From a virus: a stretch of DNA of 64,000 bases. Made by a program: the position numbers and the translations under genes. The notes beneath the pieces were generated by a model, which was not told the DNA's origin, did not search any database, and saw nothing but the letters and a program-made list of their open reading frames with translations. Below, piece after piece: positions 6,486 to 48,770 of the stretch. The stretch is taken from IMG/VR virus record IMGVR_UViG_3300014059_000004. One strand, written 5' to 3'. Each line of letters opens with the position of its first letter. Position 1 is the stretch's first letter.

Positions 6486-6869
6486 ATGGCTGAAGAGAAG
6501 AAGATCGACTACAACGCGTTGGGTCAATCGATCGATACAACGTTTGGAAGATCATCGACGCCTAAAACTGCGTCATATTCTGTGAAGTTTTCGCTTGCTG
6601 GAAACACGATCACTGCGTCCTATGCAGCAATCGTTAACTTCGGCACAGAAAAAGAGATGATATTGATGAAGAGAGGTTACTCTGAAGAGAGCACCTCTGT
6701 CATCAATGCTGCATTGAAGTCAGTGAAAGCCAATTACAAGAAGTTGTCTGGTCAAACATTGTCGACTTCTGAAGTTAGCACGTCAGATTCTCTTGAGATA
6801 ATTGGGTTTAACGTTCACAACCCTAAGAGAACGGCGTACTATCGTAGGAAGACGACGTTTGAGATCTGA
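6486..6869 (+). CDS. hypothetical protein (position compatible with a small terminase subunit, unproven)
   Basis: ORF immediately upstream of the large terminase, with AGGAG-like GGAGAG before the ATG. No recognisable motif. Confidence 0.35.
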   Translation: MAEEKKIDYNALGQSIDTTFGRSSTPKTASYSVKFSLAGNTITASYAAIVNFGTEKEMILMKRGYSEESTSVINAALKSVKANYKKLSGQTLSTSEVSTSDSLEIIGFNVHNPKRTAYYRRKTTFEI

Positions 6870-6871
6870 AA

Positions 6872-8494
6872 ATGGCATCAGCTAGCAGCATTAACAACAG
6901 AGAACAGCAGATAAAAGAGATCATGAAGTGTGGCCGCGATCCGGTCTATTTCATGAAGAATTATGCAAAGATCCAGCACGCCACTCGCGGTTTGATCCCG
7001 TTTGAAACTTACCAGTTCCAAGATGATTGCATCAAGGCCTTTGAAGAGCATCGATTCAACATCATCTTGAAGTCTAGACAGTTGGGTTTGTCAACTGTCA
7101 CAGCTGCGTATTGCGTTTGGTTTGCAATCTTCAAGAAGGACAAGAACGTTCTCATCATTGCGACGAAGCTAAGCACGGCAATGAACTTCATCAAGAAAGT
7201 GAAGACAGTTCTTGACGGTCTTCCAAAGTGGCTTGTTCTCACGAAGTTCGCCCCAACGAAGCAGTCAATCCAATTTTCTAACGGTTCGAACATTACTGCA
7301 GTTCCAACATCGCCGGATGCTGGTCGTTCTGAAGCTCTTTCGTTGTTGATCGTTGATGAGGCTGCATTCATCAGAGAATTTGAAGATATCTGGACAGGTC
7401 TATCACCAACGATATCTACTGGTGGATCAGCTATCATCATCTCGACTCCTCATGGTGTTGGTGGTCAGTATTACAAGTTGTGGACAGACGCTGTTGCTTC
7501 AACGAACGAGTTCAATCCGATCAATTTGCCATGGTACGTTCATCCCGAACACGATCAAGCATGGTTTGATAAAGAGACTAGAAACCTATCAAGAAGAAAG
7601 ATTGCGCAAGAGTTCTTGTGTTCGTTCGAATCTTCTGGTGACACGTTTTTGCAACCTGAAGAGCTAGATTACTTGAGGGAGTGCATAGAACAACCAATCA
7701 GAAAAGAAGGACCAGCTGCTGGTGTTTGGATCTGGGGCAACCCAGTGTCTAACAGGAAATACATCATCTCAGCAGACGTTGCTCGAGGCGATGCAACTGA
7801 CTATTCTACGTTCCACGTTATTGACGTTGAAGAGTCTGAAGTTGTTGCAGAGTACATGGGTAAGATACCACCCGATAAATTTGCTGATCTTTTGATGACA
7901 TACGGCCGGCAATACAACGAGGCCGTGTTGATACCAGAGAAGAACACGTTTGGTTACTTTACTTGTGTAAAGCTTCGCGATGCTGGGTACAAGCGATTGT
8001 TCTACAAGAACACAGTCGGTGATCTTTTTAGTTACGTGTCAAAAGATCCAGATGCAGTTCCAGGCTTTGATACGCAAGCCAGTTCAAGGACTCAAATCCT
8101 TGCCAAGCTAGAAGAAACGATCAGAAACAGAGCTATCAAGGTATACTCGCAGAGATTGTTTGATCAGCTGCAAGCGTTCATCTGGAATGGCTCTAAGGCA
8201 ATGGCTTCCAAAGATAGTCATGATGACTTGGTTATCAGCATGGCGATTGGAACTTGGTTTGCTACTGGAGCCACTACTGTCCATGAAGACGGGAAAGAAC
8301 ATGCAGTTGCTATGCTAGCAGCTACTGGTGTTTCGAAGAGAGACATTAGCTCCACGTTCAATCAGATCAGTGCCGTTCAACCAGTGATGAATCCTAACAT
8401 GAGAGGTTTTACGCCGCAAAATGTTCATAAGCCCAGGAATGCATCAGAAGTTCGGCATGCTGACGTTAGTGACTTCAGCTGGCTTATGCGGTAA
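6872..8494 (+). CDS. terminase large subunit (T4 gp17-like)
   Basis: ATPase Walker B LLIVDEAAFI. C-terminal nuclease-domain acidic residues (ISADVARGD..., HDDLVISMA). Located before the portal. Confidence 0.85.
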   Translation: MASASSINNREQQIKEIMKCGRDPVYFMKNYAKIQHATRGLIPFETYQFQDDCIKAFEEHRFNIILKSRQLGLSTVTAAYCVWFAIFKKDKNVLIIATKLSTAMNFIKKVKTVLDGLPKWLVLTKFAPTKQSIQFSNGSNITAVPTSPDAGRSEALSLLIVDEAAFIREFEDIWTGLSPTISTGGSAIIISTPHGVGGQYYKLWTDAVASTNEFNPINLPWYVHPEHDQAWFDKETRNLSRRKIAQEFLCSFESSGDTFLQPEELDYLRECIEQPIRKEGPAAGVWIWGNPVSNRKYIISADVARGDATDYSTFHVIDVEESEVVAEYMGKIPPDKFADLLMTYGRQYNEAVLIPEKNTFGYFTCVKLRDAGYKRLFYKNTVGDLFSYVSKDPDAVPGFDTQASSRTQILAKLEETIRNRAIKVYSQRLFDQLQAFIWNGSKAMASKDSHDDLVISMAIGTWFATGATTVHEDGKEHAVAMLAATGVSKRDISSTFNQISAVQPVMNPNMRGFTPQNVHKPRNASEVRHADVSDFSWLMR

Positions 8495-8524
8495 CGAATT
8501 CAATACTTAAGGTGCAAGCAGGTT

Positions 8525-11500
8525 ATGACGATGCAAAAAAAGATCACAATGCCACAATTGAAGAAGATCATTGGAGAAGAACTTCGTCTTTCTTTGAAAG
8601 AAGCTGTCGATCATGCATCGATCAGAGAAGTGGTTAACGATGCAAGCAAGTTGCTTGCAGCTGTTGAAGCGTTCAAGAAGAGTGCCAACGGTAGCATGAT
8701 GAATGCGTTGACTCCTCAAATTTCCGACATTGAGAAGGTTCTAGAGGATATGGTTTCTACGCCTGGCTCATACGTCGAGAAGCAGAAGACCAAGCCTCAG
8801 AAAGTTTCTTTGAAGCCTGCCAAGAGTGGTAAGACGCTATTATCGCTCTTAAGCTTGTTCAAAGTAGTAGTATTAGAACTGCTCCAACAGAATGAAGGAG
8901 CTAACAACATGGCAAAGAAACAAACGAAGCAAAGTCTTTTTAAGCGTCTCACCAGGCTGTTTAAGTCTGGTCCAGTCATAAAGAAGAAGATCAGGAATGC
9001 TGATACTTCTATCGCAGTTGCAGATAAGACTAAGTCGTCTGGAACGTTGCTGTTTCAAAAGTCGTTGGCACCAACGTACGCAACGATCACAGCAAATGCG
9101 TACAACTTGTCAGAACGCCTGATGAGGTATCAAGACTACCAAGAAATGGAGATGTGCATTTCTGGTGACACAAAAATCGCTGTTCCGAACGGTTACAAAA
9201 CAATAAGAGAACTAGCTGAAGAGTGTGAGAATGATCTAGAAAAAACGTTCATTGTTTATTCGTACGATCACAACAAGGGTCAAATTGTTCCTGCACTTGG
9301 AAAACAAGCTAGACAAACATCTGTTGATCATGCATGGAAAGTAACATTTGACAGCGGGTTGTCTATTACTACTAGCGCTGGTCATAGATTGATGCTTCGT
9401 GATGGTACGTATCGAAAACTTGAAGAACTTCAAGTTGGAGATTCGATGATGCCATTTTATCGAAAAGACTTGTTTTCGAATGAAAATAATGAAAATTCGT
9501 CAAGTGGCGGTTATTCATGGATTTACACCATGGATAGTACGCACAAAAGCTGGACTAGAGAACATGTTCTAATTGCAGAATGGGTGTCTGGTCGACGATT
9601 GACAAAAGATGAATGTGTGCATCACATAAACTTTGTTAGATCAGACAACAGGCCTGAAAATCTGTTGATCATGAATAAGTTCGAACACAGTTCTTACCAT
9701 GCAAAAATCAATAACGAAAAAAAGTGGCACGTTAACAACAAAGAATGGATTGACAAATTTAAGAAAACACATTCTGAATGGATGAAAGTTAACAATCCCG
9801 CCGAAAGAAGAGATGTAACTTTTGGACGAATTCTAGAAACGTGCGAAAAGATCGGATTCAATCAATCTGCGGTATGTTCTGCACTTGATGTAAGTGTAAC
9901 GGTTATTCAAAATCGTTTGAAGAAACACGGTTTTTCTAGTTTCGAATTGTTTGCAAAAACATACTGCAATGATTGGAAAAATAGCGGTTGGAATAATTCT
10001 GGTGAGAATAACCCACGCTTTGATAAAACCTTGACGTTTGCATGCATTTGTAACGCATACACAAATGACATGTCAGCAAAGAAACTAGCTGACATGTTGG
10101 GTACTACAGTTACAAAGATCATGAATCGAATTAGAACTGCCGGCTACAAAAATTATTCTGATTTTTCAGCTCAGTTCACTAACCATAAAATTGAATCAAT
10201 CGAGTACGTTGGTGTCATTCCTCTGTATGATCTTACTGTTGATGGCTACAAAAATTTTGCAACTGATTCGGTTGTTTCACACAATACTCCGGAAATAAGC
10301 TCGGCGCTTGACATCTATGCTGATGAAACTGTCGCGGCAGATGAAAAAGGTCGTGCTCTTCACATCTACTCAGACAATGAAAGAGTAAAAGAGATCCTTG
10401 AAGATCTTTTTTATGGTACGTTGAATCTCGAATTTAACCTTCGTTCTTGGGCAAGAAATCTTGTGAAATACGGTGATTTCTTTCTCTACAACGACGTTTC
10501 AGATGATTACGGTGTTGTTTCAGCGTTTCCAATTCCAGTCAATGAAATTGAGCGTGAAGAGAACTATGACAGAGAAGATCCGTTTGCCGTTCGTTACAGG
10601 TGGGTCACTCTTGGCAATCGAATCCTAGAGAATTGGGAAGTTTCTCACTTCCGTCTCTTGGGTAACGACATGTTCTTGCCATACGGTTCTTCAGTCATTG
10701 AACCTGCGCGCCGGATTTGGCGACAGCTTATTTTGATTGAAGACGCAATGCTTGTGTACAGAGTCGTGAGAGCGCCTGAGCGCCGCGTCTTTTACATTGA
10801 CGTGGGTAACATCCCTGCAAGTGAAGTAGAGCTATACGTCGAGCAGCAAAGAAAGAAGCTTAGGACGAATCAAGTCATCGACTCGAACACTGGGCGAGTT
10901 GACTTGCGCTATAATCCAATGTCTGTTGATGAGGATTATCTCATGCCGGTCCGCGGTGCAGAATCTGGAACGAAGATAGAAACACTTGCAGGCGGACAGA
11001 ACACTGCAGCAGTTGAAGACGTAGCATACATCCAGAAAAAGCTATTTGCGGCGCTGAAAATTCCTCGTGCATACTTGGGTTACGATGAGGCGCTATGCCT
11101 GGATCAGTCAACTTCTATCCCACTTTACGATGGTCGGACATTGACAATAGAAGAAATAGCGACTGAGTTTAACGCTGGAAAACAGAACTGGACATACACG
11201 ATCGATTCATCAGGCAAACATGTTCCTGGAAAAATTATCGATGCATGGAAGACAAAAGACGTTACTGAACTTTATCATGTGACTCTTGATAATGGTCATG
11301 TTGTCAAGTGCACAGCAAATCATCCATTCATGCTTAGAGATGGCACGTATCGTCGAGCAGATGAATTGAAGAAGGATGACAGTCTGATGCCAGTTTATAG
11401 AAAGTTTTCGTCAAAGTCTGATGGTGATTTTCAGAATGGCTATGAAAAAATTCTGAACAATAATACTGGACGTTGGGAATATACACATCGTCTAGCAAAC

Positions 11501-13318
11501 GAAGCTGGACTAGTTACTGATCATGCATCACGTGATCTTGAGAGATCATATGTAATTCATCATATCGATCATGATAAACGAAATAACAATCCAACAAATT
11601 TGATCAAGATGGGCAAGCGTGCTCATATTTTGCATCATTCTAGCGGTGCACGTGCTAATTTGTTGTCAAACACTGCTCGCGTCGCTCTTCGTGAAACAAT
11701 GAAGACGCAAAAGTACATCGATGATCATCTTAAAGGCGTTCAGAACAGCTGGGATAATTCAATCACGAGAAGAAATTCAATTGCTGTATCAAATTCACAA
11801 CAAAAACGTGTGAATATTTCAATCGAATCATTTAATGAATTGGCACTTAAATGTAGTGCAAGATCAGAATTTTATAAGCGTCTTAAGAGCGATTTGAACG
11901 TTAGTCGTACGTGCTTTGTTAACAACTTGTCTAGATCAACAATTGACGTTCGAACGTGGTTGTCATCTCATTTTGGTGTTATTAAGCATCGTGGAAATAG
12001 TAAGAAACTTAACTTCAATTTGCAAGACTTGATTGATGAATGCGTTAAACACAAAATTCGTAGCATAACTGAGTGGAGGCGTTGTAAGGATGTTTCGGTT
12101 AGTGGGCATGTTGTTAAACGAGTTTTGAATAACGCAGGGTACAAAGATTTTGCTAGCTTTGCAAAAACGTTGAATCATCAAATTGTTAACGTCGAACTAG
12201 TAAAACTAGACGAACCGCGAGCCGTCTATGATTTGACGATTGAGGGAAATCATAATTTTGCCATTGAAGCTTCAGAGTCAGAATGTAGCGATGACAGCTT
12301 GTCAAGTATGATTGTTGTTCACAACAGTTCAAAGGCAACGCTAGCCCAAGAAGATATCAGATTTTCCAGGACAATCTCAGTAATCCAGAAAACAATCATC
12401 TCTGAGCTTAATAAGCTAGCGATCATTCACCTATATGCTCATGGTTTTGACGGAGAGGATCTGCAGAATTTTACTCTTCGTCTTTCGAATCCTTCTACTG
12501 TTGCACAGCAGCAGAAGCTTGAGTTGTGGAGAGCAAAGTTTGAGATCGCTGGTTCTGCACCAGAAGGTTTTGTTGACAAGAACTTCATAAGAAAAGAAAT
12601 TTGGGGTCTTAACGAAGAGCAGTGCAAAGCTATCGATGACGCTCGTTTGAAAGATAAGATCGTTGATTCAACGATTGAGGGTGCTGCAGCTGGAGAAGCC
12701 GGAGCTGGCGGAGGTGATGCTGGCGTTGATGATCTATTTGGCGGCGACAACGGCGGAGAAGCAACTGGTGGAGAGGAAGCTGGGGGCGGAGGCGGAGAAG
12801 AAACACCACCTGAAGAAAATGCAGGCGAGGAACCAGAAGAAGAGGTTGAACCAGACGTTGAGCTTCTAACTTCAGCAGATTCTTTTGATGATGAAGTCTT
12901 TGGGTTGAAGGTTGGAAATTCTGTCAGAGACGTGGAAGTACCTGTGAAAGCGCAGAAGCAGCTTGACAGAGTGCTATACAATCGTGGTCGCTTGAGGACT
13001 CACGGAGCATCAAAGACGTTCATGCCAGATCTTGAGAAGATGACGTCAAATGATGAGCACGAATCGTTGAACGATCCTTTCGATTCTAATTGGATGAAAT
13101 CTGTGGTTAGCAATCCATTCGGTGAGAGCAGACAACACGAAAGACCAATAATGACGTCAGATATGATGTCTATTCTTCGAAATTGGTCTGTTACCAAGCG
13201 AGTCAATCGTGCCACCGCCACAGCGCAAAAGGTGATCACAGAATCGAATGATGACCTTGATGTGACTGTTGAATTCGACGAAGTATTTAATGATGACGAA
13301 CCAGGAGAGCAAGAGTAA
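8525..13318 (+). CDS. portal protein (T4 gp20-like) interrupted by two inteins; exteins about 810 aa
   Basis: Extein segments LIEDAMLVYRVVRAPERRVFYIDVGNIPA and ...DEDYLMPVRGAESGTKIETLAGG...AALKIPRAYLGYDE match T4 gp20 ([28 protein letters not shown] / ...[23 protein letters not shown]...). An alternative strong start lies at 8909 (AGGAG N9 ATG, MAKKQTKQSLFKRL, cf. gp20 N-terminus). Confidence 0.85.
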   Translation: MTMQKKITMPQLKKIIGEELRLSLKEAVDHASIREVVNDASKLLAAVEAFKKSANGSMMNALTPQISDIEKVLEDMVSTPGSYVEKQKTKPQKVSLKPAKSGKTLLSLLSLFKVVVLELLQQNEGANNMAKKQTKQSLFKRLTRLFKSGPVIKKKIRNADTSIAVADKTKSSGTLLFQKSLAPTYATITANAYNLSERLMRYQDYQEMEMCISGDTKIAVPNGYKTIRELAEECENDLEKTFIVYSYDHNKGQIVPALGKQARQTSVDHAWKVTFDSGLSITTSAGHRLMLRDGTYRKLEELQVGDSMMPFYRKDLFSNENNENSSSGGYSWIYTMDSTHKSWTREHVLIAEWVSGRRLTKDECVHHINFVRSDNRPENLLIMNKFEHSSYHAKINNEKKWHVNNKEWIDKFKKTHSEWMKVNNPAERRDVTFGRILETCEKIGFNQSAVCSALDVSVTVIQNRLKKHGFSSFELFAKTYCNDWKNSGWNNSGENNPRFDKTLTFACICNAYTNDMSAKKLADMLGTTVTKIMNRIRTAGYKNYSDFSAQFTNHKIESIEYVGVIPLYDLTVDGYKNFATDSVVSHNTPEISSALDIYADETVAADEKGRALHIYSDNERVKEILEDLFYGTLNLEFNLRSWARNLVKYGDFFLYNDVSDDYGVVSAFPIPVNEIEREENYDREDPFAVRYRWVTLGNRILENWEVSHFRLLGNDMFLPYGSSVIEPARRIWRQLILIEDAMLVYRVVRAPERRVFYIDVGNIPASEVELYVEQQRKKLRTNQVIDSNTGRVDLRYNPMSVDEDYLMPVRGAESGTKIETLAGGQNTAAVEDVAYIQKKLFAALKIPRAYLGYDEALCLDQSTSIPLYDGRTLTIEEIATEFNAGKQNWTYTIDSSGKHVPGKIIDAWKTKDVTELYHVTLDNGHVVKCTANHPFMLRDGTYRRADELKKDDSLMPVYRKFSSKSDGDFQNGYEKILNNNTGRWEYTHRLANEAGLVTDHASRDLERSYVIHHIDHDKRNNNPTNLIKMGKRAHILHHSSGARANLLSNTARVALRETMKTQKYIDDHLKGVQNSWDNSITRRNSIAVSNSQQKRVNISIESFNELALKCSARSEFYKRLKSDLNVSRTCFVNNLSRSTIDVRTWLSSHFGVIKHRGNSKKLNFNLQDLIDECVKHKIRSITEWRRCKDVSVSGHVVKRVLNNAGYKDFASFAKTLNHQIVNVELVKLDEPRAVYDLTIEGNHNFAIEASESECSDDSLSSMIVVHNSSKATLAQEDIRFSRTISVIQKTIISELNKLAIIHLYAHGFDGEDLQNFTLRLSNPSTVAQQQKLELWRAKFEIAGSAPEGFVDKNFIRKEIWGLNEEQCKAIDDARLKDKIVDSTIEGAAAGEAGAGGGDAGVDDLFGGDNGGEATGGEEAGGGGGEETPPEENAGEEPEEEVEPDVELLTSADSFDDEVFGLKVGNSVRDVEVPVKAQKQLDRVLYNRGRLRTHGASKTFMPDLEKMTSNDEHESLNDPFDSNWMKSVVSNPFGESRQHERPIMTSDMMSILRNWSVTKRVNRATATAQKVITESNDDLDVTVEFDEVFNDDEPGEQE
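9155..10285 (+). mobile_element. intein 1 (377 aa) with an HNH endonuclease domain, in the portal gene
   Basis: Starts at Cys in block A CISGDTKIAV; block B TSAGHRLM. Ends VYDLTVDGYKNFATDSVVSHN followed by the +1 Thr. Internal HNH motif HHINFVRSDNRPENL...H. In-frame length 1131 nt. Confidence 0.8.
11096..12325 (+). mobile_element. intein 2 (410 aa) with an HNH endonuclease domain, paralogous to intein 1
   Basis: Starts at Cys in CLDQSTSIPL; block B TANHPFML. Ends VYDLTIEGNHNFAI...IVVHN followed by the +1 Ser. HNH motif HHIDHDKRNNNPTNL...H. Shares LRDGTYR(K/R)..EL..(G/D)DS(M/L)MP.YRK with intein 1. Confidence 0.75.
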
Positions 13319-13319
13319 C

Positions 13320-14189
13320 ATGTCCAAGCAGTTGACACATAAGAAGAAGAGAAATTCAGGTTTGCTCTATGAATTTCTGATTCGAACGATCTCGCGCTCT
13401 CTCGTCGAAGGCGATCAAAAGAAGTCAGCGACAGCACTAAAGATTTTGAAGCGCAGCTTCAAGCCTGGCACTGAACTGTACAAGGAGTTCAGGCTCATCA
13501 ATTCGCTCGTTCGTACGACAGTTAGTTCGGAACATGTTGCTGCATCGATCATAAATGAAGCTAAAGTAGCTGCTGGTTCGTACGATTTGAAAGCTCTTGA
13601 CAAAGAGAAGTCCATCCTGATCAAGAACATCAATCATCTTATCAATGATGAAAATTTTTATGATCAACAAGTTAACGAGTACAAAGTTTACGCTACAGTG
13701 CAGACGTTGATCAACGAATGGCGATCATCTGACAAAGACATCGGAAAGCTCGCTGAGTACGAAGATCAGCTAATGAAATGGTTGACAACGGAAAAGAAAG
13801 AGCAAGAAGATAGCGTCATCAACGAGGAATCGCCGGGCACTGCCCGGCTGATGATGAAGGTCATGACCAAGAAGTTGAACGAGAAGTACTCGGGCGTCTT
13901 GAATGCTGACCAGAAGTCTTTGATGAAAGCTTACATCTTCTCAACAGCATCCAGCGATCCAACGGTTATTCAGAAGAAGCTAGCAGAGATCAAGGATTCT
14001 CTTCTTCAGAAGATCGATGCTTACTCAAAGATTGAAAAGAACAAGCTTATAAGCGAAAAGTTGTCGAATACGACGCAGCAATTGCTTACAGAAGATCTAA
14101 GCAACGTTGATGACTCTACGGTCACGCGCTTCATGCTTTACGCTAAGCTAGGATCAGAACTTGACCAAGAAGATGGGGATGAAAGATGA
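13320..14189 (+). CDS. hypothetical prohead core/scaffold-associated protein
   Basis: The ATG at 13320 is 1 nt after the portal stop, with GGAG upstream. Lies between portal and prohead protease, as do T4 gp67/gp68. Confidence 0.45.
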   Translation: MSKQLTHKKKRNSGLLYEFLIRTISRSLVEGDQKKSATALKILKRSFKPGTELYKEFRLINSLVRTTVSSEHVAASIINEAKVAAGSYDLKALDKEKSILIKNINHLINDENFYDQQVNEYKVYATVQTLINEWRSSDKDIGKLAEYEDQLMKWLTTEKKEQEDSVINEESPGTARLMMKVMTKKLNEKYSGVLNADQKSLMKAYIFSTASSDPTVIQKKLAEIKDSLLQKIDAYSKIEKNKLISEKLSNTTQQLLTEDLSNVDDSTVTRFMLYAKLGSELDQEDGDER

Positions 14190-14809
14190 AAGAGCAACGG
14201 TTGCTAAGCACGTACGACGTGCATGATTATGAAGTGATCACCGAAGTCAGCGACAAGCCGACAGGCCCTGTCAAGAAGATCATGATGAAGGGAATCCTTC
14301 AGAAAGCTGATACGCTAAATCAGAACGGTAGAATCTACCCAAAGTACGTTCTCGAGCGTGAAGTAAGAAACTACCAAAAGTTCATCCTCGAGAATAGGGC
14401 TCTAGGAGAACTAGACCACCCAGATTCATCAGTTGTTAACTTGAAGAACGTTTCTCACATCGTTAGAGAAGCTTACATGGAAGATGGTACTGTGTACGGA
14501 ACAGTTGAGATCCTTGACACGCCGTCTGGAAAAGTTTTGCAATCACTAGTTGAGTCAAAGGTGAAGCTTGGAATCTCCTCGCGAGGCGTCGGTTCAACTG
14601 CAAAGAAGGGTGATTATTACGAGGTTCAAGACGACTTTCAGCTTATCTGCTGGGACTATGTATCGGAACCATCAACTCCCGGAGCTTTCATGATTCCTGA
14701 AGGTAAAAAGATAACGCAAGCTGAACTAAATAAGGTCTTTAATAGATCTGATCGAATTGACAGGATCTTGAACGAAATTCTCAAGAAGTTATGCCAACTG
14801 GGTCTATAA
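14186..14809 (+). CDS. prohead core protease (T4 gp21-like)
   Basis: ATGA overlap with the upstream gene. NGRIYP...LGELDHPDSS...GTVEILDTPSGK...KLGISSRGVGS resembles the conserved His/Ser blocks of prohead proteases. Position between portal and scaffold/MCP. Confidence 0.7.
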   Translation: MKEQRLLSTYDVHDYEVITEVSDKPTGPVKKIMMKGILQKADTLNQNGRIYPKYVLEREVRNYQKFILENRALGELDHPDSSVVNLKNVSHIVREAYMEDGTVYGTVEILDTPSGKVLQSLVESKVKLGISSRGVGSTAKKGDYYEVQDDFQLICWDYVSEPSTPGAFMIPEGKKITQAELNKVFNRSDRIDRILNEILKKLCQLGL

Positions 14810-15585: not shown

Positions 15586-15986
15586 GATACGCTGCTGAAT
15601 TTCAATCATCGGCGCTTCCATGGGTAACAAGCAGCCAAGTTCCCGTTGTAACGTCTGGAATTCTACGTTGTGACTTTCCTAAAGTCAGTAGGTTCGTAAC
15701 TGTTTTGAATAATGCTAGTGCTTCAGCCGGTCAAGAAGTTCGAATCGGATTCACTAGGAATGGAATGACAGCTGGTTACTACAGCGTTCTAGCAGGTGGT
15801 CAGCAGACGACGATGGAAGTTAGAGTCACTAGCCTCTACATTGCTGGTGACACCAGCAACAATCTTCGAGTTTCTGTTCTTGCTGGTCTGACTAACATTG
15901 ATAAGTCAATGATGCCTCAACTGTCAGGAACACTTGATTCGGGCGACGTTGGTTGGTCTGGCGTCGGTTTACAAGAGGAAATTTAA
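15555..15986 (+). CDS. hypothetical protein
   Basis: ORF in the head module. TAATG overlap with def. Confidence 0.4.
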   Translation: MSLNNPKGGLGYAAEFQSSALPWVTSSQVPVVTSGILRCDFPKVSRFVTVLNNASASAGQEVRIGFTRNGMTAGYYSVLAGGQQTTMEVRVTSLYIAGDTSNNLRVSVLAGLTNIDKSMMPQLSGTLDSGDVGWSGVGLQEEI

Positions 15987-16480
15987 TGGAACTAGTCAAA
16001 ATACCTGATGATCGTTTGCGGTTCTTGTCCGGACCGGTTGACAAGTTCGATCGTTCGCTTCAAGAGCTATCAACTAGCATGAAATTGGTGATGGCTGTCA
16101 ATGGCGGCGTCGGCCTAGCTGCACCTCAAGTTGGTGTCAACAAGAGGGTCATAGTTGTCAACGTAGCGCCTGGTAGCAGCACACCAGACTTGATCACCAT
16201 GGTGAATCCAGTCATAGTGTACTCTTCAAGCTCGCAAGAAGCCGGCGAAGAGGGTTGCTTGTCTGTTCCGGGTGAACGATGCACCGTGACACGCGCAAAA
16301 TCTGTTGAAGTCGAATACAGAGAACCGAATGGGTTCTTCAAGAAGAAGATCTTCACTGGCTACGTTGCTAGAATTGTGCAGCACGAGATAGACCATTTGG
16401 ACGGTGTCTTGATGATCGATCGCTCAGCAACCCCTCTAGAAGCACACACGAGGGCACAAGAATATATTTCGGCTCACTGA
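15986..16480 (+). CDS. def: peptide deformylase
   Basis: All three PDF motifs are present: GVGLAAPQVG, EGCLSVPG and QHEIDHLDG. Length 164 aa. AGGA RBS 8 nt upstream of the ATG. Confidence 0.9.
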   Translation: MELVKIPDDRLRFLSGPVDKFDRSLQELSTSMKLVMAVNGGVGLAAPQVGVNKRVIVVNVAPGSSTPDLITMVNPVIVYSSSSQEAGEEGCLSVPGERCTVTRAKSVEVEYREPNGFFKKKIFTGYVARIVQHEIDHLDGVLMIDRSATPLEAHTRAQEYISAH

Positions 16481-16495
16481 TAAGGGTTACAGCAA

Positions 16496-16969
16496 ATGAA
16501 TTCACCGAATAAAATCTCGAGGTCACAGCTTAAGCAGCTGGTGAAAGAGTGCCTTGTTGAGATCTTGCAAGAAGGTCTTGGTTCCCCACTAGCACCATCA
16601 ACACCAGCTTACGCTCAGCAAGAAAGGCTTCCTCTTCGAGCAGAAGTGACAAACAGAAAGCCTGCAGCACAGCAGAAAAGAATTTCTCCGCTTGACATGC
16701 CAGCAACGAACCATGGGCTGTCGCAAGATATCAGAGAGGCAATCAAGAGAGAAGTTGCTGGATCACCAAACAAGAGTGTCATGTCAGAAATTTTTGCTGA
16801 CACTGCCAATCGTACACTACCTGGTTTGATGTCTGATGGCGGCGGTGACCAGCATCGTCCGACGTTGCAAGAGCAATTCCACGGAACGCCAGAAGAGATA
16901 TTTGGTGAAGAAGCATCTTCAAAGTGGGCTGAGCTAGCATTTGCATCGCCGGTAAAGAAAATTTCGTAA
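16496..16969 (+). CDS. hypothetical protein with a CTS-like N-terminal leader
   Basis: N-terminal ISRSQLKQLVKECLVEILQE leader motif, shared with four other proteins. Confidence 0.5.
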   Translation: MNSPNKISRSQLKQLVKECLVEILQEGLGSPLAPSTPAYAQQERLPLRAEVTNRKPAAQQKRISPLDMPATNHGLSQDIREAIKREVAGSPNKSVMSEIFADTANRTLPGLMSDGGGDQHRPTLQEQFHGTPEEIFGEEASSKWAELAFASPVKKIS

Positions 16970-17012: not shown

Positions 17013-17270
17013 ATGAAGCTAACAACGCAACTACTCAAGTCAATCATTGAAGAAGAAGTTTCTAAGTTCGGTTCTGGAGAAACAACAGAAGACCGAGCTG
17101 ATGACACGGAAGAAGTCGATGCTGACGAATTCGCAGATTCGCTAGAGAAGAAGATTGACTATGCTAAGGCGCTGAAGATCGAAGAAACTCGTCTTCGCCG
17201 TAGGCTAAGCAAGATTGTCGAAGCGAGAGCTCGGGTTAAGCAGCTCATCGCTAAGTCGATCTTAAGATAA
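17013..17270 (+). CDS. hypothetical acidic protein with a CTS-like N-terminal leader
   Basis: N-terminal LTTQLLKSIIEEEV leader motif. Confidence 0.5.
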   Translation: MKLTTQLLKSIIEEEVSKFGSGETTEDRADDTEEVDADEFADSLEKKIDYAKALKIEETRLRRRLSKIVEARARVKQLIAKSILR

Positions 17271-19841: not shown

Positions 19842-21752
19842 ATGGAGAATAAAATGAAGTTTTCACTTGATCAGCTAACACAAGGTATTCGCGAAAAGCA
19901 CGTTGGTGCGGAGCGAGCACGTCTTGTTGAGAAGTGGGCGCGCACCGGTCTTCTGAGGAACCTGGATGGCAATCGTCGCGAGATGATGTCCCAGCTTCTC
20001 GAGAACCAGGCGGCTCAGGTTCTTAAGGAGAACGTTTCTCTTTCCACTGGCGGCGGCGCAGTTACGTCGTCCGGTCAGATCCAGGGCTTCTCGAACATTG
20101 CATTCCCAATCGTTCGTCGAGTCTTCGGTGGCCTTGTTGCGAACGAGCTCGTCTCGATCCAGCCAATGTCGCTGCCATCTGGTCTCATCTTCTACCTCGA
20201 TTACACCTACGGCTCGAACGTCGGCGGCGAGGCAGGCGCAAGCTTGAGCAACACCTCAACGTTTGAGACGTACCAGCGCGGTCAGTCGATCTACAACAAC
20301 CCACCAGGCAAGGGCATTCAGTCCGGTTCTCTTGCGACGGGTGGTATGTACGATCTTGTCAACGTCGGTTACTCGAAGGTTCACTCTTCGTCGCTCGGCG
20401 TCTCCGGATCGAACCTCGATCTCGGTGCATGGACGGGTGCTTCGCAAGCATGGACCGTCGGTGGTGCAGTTCGCAGCGACACGGACCTTTCTGGTTCGAA
20501 CGCCCGCTTCTTGAACTTCGATCCACAGATCGAGAACGCACTGGCACAGGGCGACCTGGACCTCACGTTCTTGCACCTCTCGGTGTCCGCACTGCAGACT
20601 GCAATTCCAAAGGGTGACTTCTTGGCACCAGAGCAGATCGCAATCTTCGGATTCACTGCTGCGAACAACGTTTCTGAGTGGGGTGAGTCATACCAGTCGG
20701 GCAAGGGTCTCTACAACCTCCGCCGCCTTAACAAGCGCGGTGATTGGAACGGCTCAACGTTCACGCTGAACCCGCTGAACGGAACGTACATCCAGATGGT
20801 TCTGAAGCTTACCAACGGTGGATCAGTTCCAACGATGGGTACGGCTGTCCAGAAGGTCTCGATGGCAATCACTGATGCACTCACCGTTGATTCAACGTCA
20901 GGTGCTACGCTGACTGTCCCATCCTTCGAGTCTGACTTTGGTTCATCGCCAACGCCAGCAATCCCAGAGATTGACATCAAGATCGAGGCGATCTCGATCA
21001 CTGCAACGACCCGCAAGCTCCGCGCTCGCTGGTCCCCAGAGCTTGCGCAGGATCTCAATGCGTACCACTCGATGGACGCTGAGGTTGAGCTGACGAGCAT
21101 CCTTTCTGAGAACATTGCCCTTGAGATTGATCGCGAGATCCTCAACGACCTTGTCACTCAGGCAAACGGTGCAAACTACTACTGGAGCCGAGCTCCAGGC
21201 AAGTTTGTTAACAAGGTCACCGGCGACAGGCAGAACCTCGCGAGCTCGCTCTCGATCGGTCCTCAGTTCACTGGTACGGTTCGCGAGTGGTATGAGACTC
21301 TCATCGAGACGATCATCGACGTGGCGAACACGATCCACCGCAAGACGCTTCGCGGATCAGCTAACTTCATGGTCACTGGACCAGATGTTTGCACGATCCT
21401 GGAGAGCTCGGTGCTCTACAAGCCAAAGTACACGCTCGACAGCGAAGGCCAAGTTGGTTCTCCGTTCACGGTCGGTGCAGAGGCGATCGGTACTGTTTCC
21501 AACAGGTTCACTGTCTACAAGGATCCTTACTTCCCAAGGAACAAGGTTCTTGTCGGCTACAAGGGCGGTTCCTACCTTGAGACTGGATACGTATACGCTC
21601 CGTACGTTCCACTCATCGTGACCCCAACGCTGTTCGCACCTGAAGACTTCACGCCACGTAAGGGTGTCATGACCCGTTACGGCAAGAAGATGGTCAGGAC
21701 GGACTTCTATGGCACTGTGACGGTCATGGACATGAATGTGATTTTACGTTAG
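19842..21752 (+). CDS. major capsid protein (T4 gp23-like)
   Basis: FPIVRRVFGGLVANELVSIQPMSLPSGLIFYLDYTYG resembles gp23 AVMGMVRRAIPNLIAFDICGVQPMNSPTGQVFALRAVYG. RWSPELAQDLNAYHSMDAEVELTSILSENIALEIDREI resembles AAYSIELAQDLRAVHGMDADAELSGILATEIMLEINREV. The C-terminal GYKGG...YVYAPYVPL block also matches. An alternative start at 19854 has a GGAG RBS. Confidence 0.9.
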   Translation: MENKMKFSLDQLTQGIREKHVGAERARLVEKWARTGLLRNLDGNRREMMSQLLENQAAQVLKENVSLSTGGGAVTSSGQIQGFSNIAFPIVRRVFGGLVANELVSIQPMSLPSGLIFYLDYTYGSNVGGEAGASLSNTSTFETYQRGQSIYNNPPGKGIQSGSLATGGMYDLVNVGYSKVHSSSLGVSGSNLDLGAWTGASQAWTVGGAVRSDTDLSGSNARFLNFDPQIENALAQGDLDLTFLHLSVSALQTAIPKGDFLAPEQIAIFGFTAANNVSEWGESYQSGKGLYNLRRLNKRGDWNGSTFTLNPLNGTYIQMVLKLTNGGSVPTMGTAVQKVSMAITDALTVDSTSGATLTVPSFESDFGSSPTPAIPEIDIKIEAISITATTRKLRARWSPELAQDLNAYHSMDAEVELTSILSENIALEIDREILNDLVTQANGANYYWSRAPGKFVNKVTGDRQNLASSLSIGPQFTGTVREWYETLIETIIDVANTIHRKTLRGSANFMVTGPDVCTILESSVLYKPKYTLDSEGQVGSPFTVGAEAIGTVSNRFTVYKDPYFPRNKVLVGYKGGSYLETGYVYAPYVPLIVTPTLFAPEDFTPRKGVMTRYGKKMVRTDFYGTVTVMDMNVILR

Positions 21753-27208: not shown

Positions 27209-28987
27209 ATGAGAGTCCTACGTTCTAACCTGTCTGGAGATGACGTAAAGTCCTGGCAGACGTTCTTGAGAGGATTGAATCCATCGTCCTCTCTCATCGT
27301 CACAGGTACGTTTGATCCTCCTACGTACTCAGCGACAGTAGCGTTCCAGAGAGCGACCGGGCTTCAGGCTGATGGTGTCGTTGGGACTAGAACGCTCGGC
27401 AAGGCAATGAGCCTAGGGTTCAACTGCCTAGAAGACGTATCAACTGATAAGTCAAGTTCGTGCTGGCCGCCGCAGCCGCTAGAACCTTCTCTTTCACCAA
27501 GCGAAAGAGAGAAGATGTTTGGCAGCTTTGCGTACGTTCCTGTGCCAGTTGCTGGAAATCCTGAAGCTATCAAGATAACTGACGGATGGTCGATGAAGAA
27601 CATCGTTGGCGTGCAAACTCCAACGTTGAACCATCTCAACGTCAATGCTGTCCAGTTCAACAAGCTAGCAGCTGATCAATTTCTGAACCTGCTCCAGGCT
27701 TGGGATGATGCTGGAATGTCAAGGCTGATACTCTCGTGGGGCGGCACTTGGTCGCCACGATTCATTCGTGGCAGCAGAACCGTTCTTTCAAACCACGCAT
27801 GGGGAACAGCATTTGACATCAACGTTCAATGTAACATGCTTGGGGCTGAACCAGCGCTCGTTGGGTCAGTTGGTTCTGTCCGTGAACTAGTTGATATCGC
27901 ATCTGCTAATGGTTTTTACTGGGGTGGTTGGTTCGGCTACAAGAAAGGTGGCCGAGCGGACGGGATGCACTTCGAAATTTGCAAATTGCTGTTAACGTTG
28001 GAGACACAGATGGCTGGTAGAATTAAATCGAAAAACAAAGAATGGTATCATGAATCGAATTACTCTAGAGAACCTAGCAGCGCTCGAGTGGGCATGATGA
28101 CCAACGGAGAAGAGGCTGACGGGGATGAAGAGTTGCAGGAGACTATCACGTTGTCAGTGAACGAACTTCGACAGATCATTAAGGAAGAAGTTTCAAGCAG
28201 CTTTGTGTCTGGCTTGAAAGCTGCAACAGTTGATCAGATATCTTCAAAGTGGCCAAAGTTCGTGGAGTACTTGAAGGGAAAGTTTGGCGAGATGCTTGGC
28301 AAGGCAAAGTTCGCAGTGAAGGGCTCTGGTATGCTCAGCAAAGGCACCCCGTTTGTGTTGCTCCCAGATTCTAGCAGGACTGTCATATTTTGGGATAACG
28401 TCGGACCGAAATACAATACATCTGATACCGTTGCTCAAGCTATCGGTAAATTGAGTGCATTATCAGATGAAGCAGTCCTAGCCTCTTGCGAGGTGTTATA
28501 TTTCTACACGACGTTGAGGCTTATTTTAAGAATGACTGCGAACAGAGTCATTGATGAACATAGTGAACTAAGTGGTGTTGGGTCATTGACCCATGACCAG
28601 CTTGATGCTTATGTTAACACTAGCCCGTACGTCATTGTATCAGGCGCAGTTGGGTCTGTTCCACCCGGCGCTAGGAAGCTTGTTGCTGGTCCGGGTGTCA
28701 CGATAACAGATGGTGGTGCCGGTGGTGACCTGATAGTGTCTGTCACTTCTGTGACGACCGGTTCAACCGTGCAGTGGATGGAGAGACCGTCGGGACTGGC
28801 TGATGGCTCGAACATGACATTTAACCTAACACGTGCACCAGTACCCGGGACTGCTTTGATGTTCTACGTTAACGGATTGTTGCAAGAGCAAGGCTCAGAT
28901 TCAGACTACACGCTCTCTGGTTCCGTGATATCGATGTTGTATCCGTACAGATCCGGCAGTAACATCAGAGCTACTTATCCTTACTGA
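27209..28987 (+). CDS. peptidoglycan hydrolase: PG_binding_1 domain + M15 zinc peptidase, fused to a C-terminal tail-fibre-like domain
   Basis: N-terminal DVKSWQTFL...TVAFQRATGLQADGVVGTRTLGKA (PG-binding). M15 signature SNHAWGTAFD plus DGMHFE. C-terminal GVTITDGGAGGDLIVSV is shared with the ORF at 31502. Confidence 0.7.
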   Translation: MRVLRSNLSGDDVKSWQTFLRGLNPSSSLIVTGTFDPPTYSATVAFQRATGLQADGVVGTRTLGKAMSLGFNCLEDVSTDKSSSCWPPQPLEPSLSPSEREKMFGSFAYVPVPVAGNPEAIKITDGWSMKNIVGVQTPTLNHLNVNAVQFNKLAADQFLNLLQAWDDAGMSRLILSWGGTWSPRFIRGSRTVLSNHAWGTAFDINVQCNMLGAEPALVGSVGSVRELVDIASANGFYWGGWFGYKKGGRADGMHFEICKLLLTLETQMAGRIKSKNKEWYHESNYSREPSSARVGMMTNGEEADGDEELQETITLSVNELRQIIKEEVSSSFVSGLKAATVDQISSKWPKFVEYLKGKFGEMLGKAKFAVKGSGMLSKGTPFVLLPDSSRTVIFWDNVGPKYNTSDTVAQAIGKLSALSDEAVLASCEVLYFYTTLRLILRMTANRVIDEHSELSGVGSLTHDQLDAYVNTSPYVIVSGAVGSVPPGARKLVAGPGVTITDGGAGGDLIVSVTSVTTGSTVQWMERPSGLADGSNMTFNLTRAPVPGTALMFYVNGLLQEQGSDSDYTLSGSVISMLYPYRSGSNIRATYPY

Positions 28988-48428: not shown

Positions 48429-48770
48429 ATGAAAATTACTGAATCGCAGCTAAGAAAGTTGATCAAGGAAGTTCTGAAGGAAGAGGCTGAACTGTCCGAA
48501 GCATCCATGGAGCAAGCCAAAGTCCAGGGTCCGCTTAGAGACTTGTACACTTCCCTTCAGACTGCCAAGAAGCAGCTTGGCCGTGAGGGTGCAAAGAGAG
48601 CCGTGTCAGAGCTGATGCAGAACACTTCTGAGTCTGAGAAGGCTCAGCAGCTGCTGAAGGCGATCACGCAGATCGAATCAAACATCGATTCAGTGATGAA
48701 CTGGCTCAATAGCACTTCAGCTTCAAGCATGACCAAAGACCCTTGGGCAGGCGTGGGCAAGAGAAGCTGA
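48429..48770 (+). CDS. hypothetical small protein with a CTS-like N-terminal leader
   Basis: N-terminal ITESQLRKLIKEVLKEE leader motif. Confidence 0.5.
   Translation: MKITESQLRKLIKEVLKEEAELSEASMEQAKVQGPLRDLYTSLQTAKKQLGREGAKRAVSELMQNTSESEKAQQLLKAITQIESNIDSVMNWLNSTSASSMTKDPWAGVGKRS

Follow-up and report, generated by a model that had tools for sequence, protein, structure and literature searches.

A 64,000-nucleotide (nt) stretch of DNA from an uncultured T4-like giant phage, IMG/VR record IMGVR_UViG_3300014059_000004 (hereafter the window), contains a gene for a T4 gp20-type portal protein whose reading frame is continuous with that of a small gene ahead of it. The most probable explanation, to which we assign a probability of about 0.8, is that the recent, lineage-specific loss of a stop codon fused two neighbouring head genes, and that this fusion is tolerated rather than designed. 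As judged from the alignment of related loci, the presumed stop loss is shown to be confined to one shallow lineage, where it joined the small gene to the portal gene through their spacer, a 69-nt remnant of which is open and in frame. A single change from TAA or TGA to TTA, in a spacer that was in frame by chance, probably caused the fusion.

Fused reading frame and related loci

The open reading frame (ORF) 8525..13318 on the plus strand encodes 1597 amino acids (aa) without interruption. An earlier reading, made from the sequence alone, had stated that the frame is open from ATG 8525 into the portal body, and indeed no stop precedes that at 13316-13318. The same sequence-only reading regarded the 128 codons ahead of ATG 8909 [(8909-8525)/3] as an N-terminal extension carried by the portal. 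This was not borne out. The 128 aa are best read as two things, namely a conserved neighbouring gene of 103-105 aa (to 8839) and 23 codons of former intergenic spacer (8840-8908). The small gene is free-standing in 39 of 40 related loci as well as in all of the best 150 of 215 representatives of its family.

For the count of related loci, 42 loci on viral contigs were retrieved and their junctions were analyzed by script, 40 of which hold both genes. Apart from a single locus, the small gene ends in a stop codon 43-1281 nt ahead of the portal start, with a non-coding spacer of 43-128 nt in most cases; wherever the alignment reaches, the portal start is an ATG that opens a MAKK-like N-terminus. 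The homologues end two or three residues past ...VSLKPVKSGK (for example, ...KSGKVV and stop), at which point the window reads on, and codon-by-codon alignment places the homologue stop at window codon 106 (TTA, 8840-8842). The closest contig (309 kb, JGI Ga0373635_0000007) has in order large terminase (TerL), a gene of 103 aa, a gap of 77 nt and a portal gene with two inteins. The sequence-only reading had stated that its own proposal of two portal isoforms would be contradicted if related phages had a stop within 8525-8909, and such a stop is present in every relative except one sister strain.

This sister strain (L005/L047, contig IMGVR_UViG_3300033121_002020) shares the junction without a stop, and its fused ORF of 1186 aa runs uninterrupted from start to end. 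It is 98.9% identical to the window, with 64 single-nucleotide polymorphisms (SNPs) in 5.5 kb, of which those checked in TerL fall on third codon positions. Within 8498-9046 the sole SNP is 8901 C/T, apart from which the spacer 8840-8908 is the same in both strains. Among the 40 related loci, the sister strain is thus the only one that, like the window, has a small gene without its own stop.

With the 128 aa alone as query, 69 homologues were found (E down to 3.4e-37), which span 97-212 aa, nearly all of them 97-110 aa, and none of which is joined to a portal. An exhaustive profile search with a hidden Markov model over 1.84 billion cluster representatives extended the family to 215 representatives; the best 150 of these measure 68-418 aa and none is portal-sized. 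In the window, the family residues that are invariant are all intact (E19, E26, D29, H30, K42, F50 and others), and the small gene has neither frameshifts nor internal stops. The gene order TerL - small gene - portal is kept, the small gene always lying between large terminase and portal, throughout a clade of uncultured T4-like phages with several contigs of 300-370 kb. Concerning the start, 62 of 70 family members begin at the position of the third codon in the window (M3, ATG 8531), and hence 8525 is no likelier a start than this ATG. From M3 to residue 105 there are 103 aa, the commonest length in the family.

Pfam and PHROG scans of the 128 aa gave no match, nor did megablast of 6800-9400 or a tblastn search of 50,697 phage records with the small protein as query. 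The best TerL matches, Flavobacterium phage immuto and Microcystis phage Mel-JY01, are only 40% identical. Taken with the empty searches, this indicates that there is no close cultured relative. An AF2 model of the module consists of four helices (mean pLDDT 73). Since Foldseek of this model against BFVD and PDB returned no match at E <= 0.001, the fold suggests no function.

In roughly a fifth of the lineages, the C-terminus of the module is extended by 55 to >120 aa of unrelated sequence (P0031/36/37, P0035, P0061 and P0065; L013, L026, L028/L030 with at least 224 aa, L035, and L041-L046). No Pfam domains were found in these extensions, and several are mutually dissimilar in alignment. As unrelated additions occur in several lineages, the C-terminus of the family evidently accepts them, and the module of about 100 aa looks as if it were a carrier of variable cargo. 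In five further representatives (P0071, P0076, P0080, P0156 and P0158), the module is matched in two stretches or is preceded by 70-220 extra N-terminal residues, which suggests duplicated leaders or other fusion architectures.

The residues across the fusion junctions read ...KSGKTLLSLLSLFK... and ...NEGANNMAK.... The minimum free energy (MFE) fold of 8815-8915 (-30.8 kcal/mol, z = -3.5) includes an 11-bp hairpin at the position of the lost stop that now lies within the ORF. In the relatives, hairpins also fold directly after the stop codons. An out-of-frame TAA is found at 8830-8832 (GG TAA G). A promoter and terminator scan of 8300-9200 detected neither between the small gene and the portal gene.

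Table 1. Positions of the fused genes, their parts and neighbouring head genes in the window.
Feature	Position	Strand	Remarks
Large terminase	6872-8494		PF03237
Small leader-bearing head-region protein	8525..8839	+	105 aa from ATG 8525, 103 aa from ATG 8531; normally own gene between TerL and portal
Leader, residues 1-26	8525..8602	+	K-I-T-x-x-x-L-K-K-I-I-x-E-E-L, then candidate cleavage site L24-K-E26/A
11-bp RNA hairpin over lost-stop position	8822..8850	+	MFE fold
Presumed stop-loss codon TTA (Leu106)	8840..8842	+	Stop position of closest-type homologues; protein and DNA alignments
Former intergenic spacer	8840..8908	+	23 in-frame sense codons LSLLSLFKVVVLELLQQNEGANN, linking small gene to portal; non-coding spacer in relatives
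Pre-portal element GCTCC-N11-GGAGC	8881..8901	+	3' arm holds Shine-Dalgarno (SD)-like AAGGAG; conserved in relatives
T4 gp20-type portal from native start	8909..13318	+	1469 aa precursor, 682 aa spliced; PF07230, phrog_213, 3JA7
Intein 1, 377 aa	9155..10285	+	Cys1...His-Asn / Thr+1; HNH endonuclease; PF14890, PF13392
Intein 2, 410 aa	11096..12325	+	Cys1...His-Asn / Ser+1; HNH-type; missing in sister strain
T4 gp21-type prohead protease (S77)	14186..14809	+	PF03420 E = 8.3e-25, phrog_207 E = 8.7e-49
gp23-type major capsid protein	19842-21752		PF07068

Leader, portal start and predicted products

The leader motif described in the sequence-only reading is present and occupies residues 7-20 (ITMPQLKKIIGEEL). 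Over 70 family sequences, the N-terminal consensus is K-I-[TSN]-x-x-x-L-[RK]-x-I-[IV]-x-E-E-[LIV], followed seven residues later by [LVMI]-x-E and then A, Q or S. Both E19 and E26 are conserved in 70/70 sequences, while position 24 is L, V, M or I in 69/70. This [LVMI]-x-E matches the hydrophobic-x-Glu specificity expected of a T4 gp21-type protease, and an S77 prohead protease is encoded nearby. The consensus of T4 gp21-type proteases is the narrower L/I-x-E. Such proteases cut C-terminal to glutamate (PMC5694885). The prohead protease of the window would probably remove the 26-residue leader at L-K-E26/A and may also trim the linker at V-L-E/L.

The motif recurs near the N-termini of the ORFs 1860-2837, 16496-16969, 17013-17267 and 48429-48770, several of which have a second [LI]-x-E/[AG] site. 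Two of these leader-bearing ORFs, 16496-16969 and 17013-17267, lie between the protease gene and the scaffold and capsid genes. A search of the window with the leader pattern gave zero matches on the minus strand, and every match on the plus strand falls inside a long ORF. The shared leader is reminiscent of a capsid-targeting or propeptide system served by a T4-type protease, in which the leader presumably directs targeting and is then cleaved off. One further copy of the motif is internal, near aa 320 of ORF 27209-28987, which encodes a peptidoglycan hydrolase (PG_binding_1 + Peptidase_M15_4).

For the portal itself, ATG 8909 stands as the native start, as the sequence-only reading had assumed: related loci have an aligned ATG with a MAKK-like N-terminus, and the element upstream of it is conserved. 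The AGGAG that had been called canonical at 9-nt spacing does exist as AAGGAG at 8895-8900; it is followed by 8 nt (8901-8908), the difference being a matter of counting convention only, and its canonical form is by itself weak evidence. A likeness of the MAKKQ... sequence to the T4 gp20 N-terminus, which had also been put forward, is not demonstrable, as the similarity to gp20 is limited to residues 227-376 of the spliced portal. In the window, a 4-mer SD core was found at only 12 of 41 sampled gene starts (background 9.5%), and many starts are A-rich (e.g. that of the capsid gene at 19842). Because most genes of the window lack an SD sequence, AAGGAG alone says little about initiation. The real argument that 8909 still initiates is the conservation of both the ATG and the upstream element. 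Ahead of ATG 8525, there is only a weak AAGGTG. The sparse use of SD sequences suggests a host in which SD usage is weak, for example among the Bacteroidota or cyanobacteria; the cultured phages nearest in TerL also infect these two groups.

In the equivalent 30 nt before the portal ATG, the relatives (L001-L040) carry the pre-portal element as GCCCC-N-GAATGGAGGGGC. Its 5-bp helix is paired in 82.5% of cells and includes four pairs with double changes; 0/500 shuffles reach the observed values, which also beat all slid registers. This helix was specified by hand and the covariation support is modest, and RNAalifold gave a weak consensus. The strain SNP at 8901 (C/T) keeps the pair by turning G-C into G-U. 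By sequestering the SD-like purines, the predicted helix could regulate translation of the portal gene.

Two products with a common portal body are a reasonable prediction, because the frame is open, the leader is real and ATG 8909 is a native start with a conserved upstream element. The proposal of two isoforms, a fusion and a plain portal, is thus plausible. Initiation at 8525 or 8531 would yield a leader-module-linker-portal polyprotein of 810 aa once both inteins have been excised, whereas initiation in the conserved 8909 region would give the normal portal of 682 aa, and mixed dodecamers could then assemble. The alternative offered in the sequence-only reading, delivery to the portal vertex of a polypeptide tagged with a capsid-targeting sequence, is possible, and it fits the ancestral free protein better than the fusion.

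Design or accident

A conserved two-isoform or read-through design finds no backing in the relatives. Of 25 non-redundant lineages, 7 have an in-frame spacing between small gene and portal; this corresponds to the chance level of 1/3, and most of the 7 have extra stops in the spacer. Hence, the read-through does not represent a conserved design. Among the spacer frames of relatives, 5/66 are open, and the probability that 26 codons are all open, calculated from base composition, is P = 0.225. A junction that is both open and in frame is therefore uncommon (a few per cent), yet accident can produce it, and an occasional case is to be expected when dozens of lineages are considered. The relatives L031 and L033 are both one substitution away from the same fusion, since they are in frame with the terminal TGA as sole stop. 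Gene fusion by stop loss is, moreover, an ordinary kind of evolutionary accident.

Several points weigh against a recent and merely tolerated stop loss. The nearest stop-bearing relative is only about 72% identical in the small protein and its spacer differs by indels, which precludes tracing the precise mutation. When metagenome contigs were scanned for the exact pattern of the portal-start region, none matched, and a peptide-pattern scan picked up only three distant loci; the stop loss can thus not be dated by a closer relative. Should the small protein be required in free form and in high copy number, the fusion ought to carry a cost, yet it has been kept in two strains 1.1% apart, which could hint at some benefit. 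Finally, other fusions may be hidden by gene callers that start the portal at the internal ATG; the fused protein of the sister strain is itself absent from the protein database.

It is unlikely, though conceivable, that the fusion is expressed and functional, with some portal subunits bearing an N-terminal, leader-containing helical module that is co-assembled with plain portal and trimmed by the prohead protease. If so, the window would capture the birth of a portal propeptide like that fixed in phiKZ-like giant phages and provide 'Rosetta-stone' evidence for a protein of about 103 aa acting at the portal vertex. In any case, the fusion physically links a widespread, portal-adjacent and uncharacterised family (215 clusters) to the portal, which is a hint at where the protein works. 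It also illustrates a simple route, a single stop loss next to an in-frame spacer, by which a portal could gain an N-terminal propeptide removable by a protease.

A deliberate two-isoform design is unlikely as well. Fusion and plain portal would both be made on purpose, with a core or targeting module tethered to some subunits so that the prohead core is nucleated or organised at the vertex that holds the portal. Such a role would be in keeping with the persistence of the fusion in two strains 1.1% diverged, with the retention of the portal's own start and upstream element, and with the constant position of the small gene next to the portal, as fused partners often interact according to 'Rosetta-stone' logic. 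The module also bears variable C-terminal cargo in other lineages, and phiKZ-like giant phages have a long N-terminal portal propeptide that is cut off by a gp21-like protease (PMC5694885). The fusion is, however, restricted to a single shallow lineage when about 25 lineages and the best 150 of 215 family representatives are compared. The relatives are in frame at chance level, mostly with extra stops, the linker is a translated spacer with a hairpin in it, and the N-terminus would place the module on the wrong side for a core protein.

It is improbable that this lineage no longer expresses the small gene, be it dead or silent, with the portal started at 8909 as the sole product and the open frame ahead of it persisting as a relic that is not translated. 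The weak AAGGTG ahead of 8525 would agree with this, as would the apparent choice of the internal start by gene callers in the sister contig, from which no fused protein has entered the database. Yet every invariant family residue is intact in a frame free of frameshifts and internal stops, most genes of this genome lack an SD sequence anyway, and the small gene is universally conserved in the clade.

Programmed recoding that frees the small protein, so that no fusion arises in practice, is highly improbable. It could proceed by a -1 shift onto the TAA at 8830-8832, by bypass or by hairpin-induced drop-off, and the stable 11-bp hairpin 8822-8850 overlaps the site that holds this out-of-frame TAA. 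The hairpin begins upstream of the would-be shift site instead of 5-8 nt downstream, however, and there is neither an X XXY YYZ slippery heptamer nor the combination seen in T4 gene 60, a stop together with matching take-off and landing codons. The relatives use an ordinary stop, and neither the mechanism, nor a signal for it, nor the in-frame arrangement is conserved; frameshifting and bypass were therefore rejected.

Least probable of all is a sequencing or assembly artefact in which a real stop or frameshift near 8830-8842 was lost: a 1-nt indel at the out-of-frame TAA would give ...KPAKSG and a stop, also a family-typical end, but the site contains no homopolymer, and the independent sister-strain contig, which differs by its 64 SNPs and a whole intein, carries the identical junction and thus argues against an assembly error.

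Known systems and neighbouring features

Engineered N-terminal fusions of the T4 portal, GFP-gp20 and Hoc-gp20, were reportedly described by Baumann, Mullaney and Black in 2006. T4 tolerates these fusions in mixed portals in which 1-6 of the 12 subunits are replaced, and viability depended on co-assembly with unfused portal (PMC3012670, PMC9026906). In T4 gp20, the N-terminal 73 residues are disordered (PMC4493910). The fused gene of the window resembles the GFP and Hoc constructs in that an extra folded polypeptide would sit on the N-terminus of a gp20-family portal, and its internal start would supply the unfused portal. In contrast to them, the fusion is natural, and its partner is an adjacent head gene of the phage itself whose leader is of the protease type.

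In phiKZ-like phages (SPN3US gp81, phiKZ and 201phi2-1), an N-terminal portal propeptide of 161-254 aa is removed after glutamate by a gp21-related protease; a proposed role is the anchoring of core or ejection proteins, while T4 gp20 is unprocessed (PMC5694885). A long N-terminal region on the portal precursor and an encoded gp21-type protease are common to both systems. The phiKZ-like propeptide is, however, conserved group-wide on a portal without sequence similarity to T4 gp20, whereas the extension in the window sits on a true PF07230 portal, is absent beyond the 98.9%-identical strain and corresponds to a separate gene in the relatives.

The capsid-targeting or propeptide system of T4 uses leaders of 10-19 aa (PMC9026906, PMC3012670). 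Like the leaders of T4 IPI-III, Alt, gp67 and gp68, that of the window is a short N-terminal amphipathic segment ending in hydrophobic-x-Glu, occurs on several unrelated small proteins and is accompanied by an encoded S77 protease. Unlike them, it is longer (about 19-26 aa) and follows another consensus, K-I-T-x-x-x-L-R-x-I-I-x-E-E-L.

Dual-start nested genes are known from other phages, for example lambda C/Nu3, T7 4A/4B and lambda S107/S105. The two products predicted here would likewise arise from an upstream and an internal start in one frame and have a common C-terminal body. Those nested genes are conserved and functional, whereas the arrangement in the window stems from two ancestrally separate genes and, despite the presence of an internal initiation region, is found in the window and the sister strain only. 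New is the instance, a natural N-terminal fusion of a gp20-type portal with a widespread, unstudied leader protein; the kinds of event and component involved were already known.

The assignment of the portal is supported by PF07230 (E = 1.1e-63, 216 bits, cut-off 22.9) and phrog_213, and the solved T4 gp20 structures 3JA7 (E = 1.3e-24) and 6UZC were matched at about 1e-24, within residues 227-376 of the spliced portal only. Intein splicing domains were recognised by the profile PF14890 (E = 6.8e-35), with junctions C...HN/T and C...HN/S. In the sister strain, which lacks intein 2, the empty site in L047 equals the predicted spliced junction LGYDEAL/SSKATL, with a blastn gap at 11089-12327. Intein 2 is, on this comparison, a mobile intein with presence/absence polymorphism at strain level. 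For intein 1, no intein-less allele was found. An annotation of the 1597-aa ORF should list small gene, spacer and portal with two inteins, and give 8909 as the ancestral portal start.

SNP density between the window and L005 is uneven, at about 2% in TerL (6985-8228) and about 0.4% across 8228-9883, a stretch that takes in the TerL end, the small gene and intein 1. Recent recombination or a sweep could account for this. Further downstream, a peptide deformylase gene (15953-16480; PF01327, E = 1e-43) lies within the head-morphogenesis cluster, between the prohead protease gene and the leader-bearing small ORFs.

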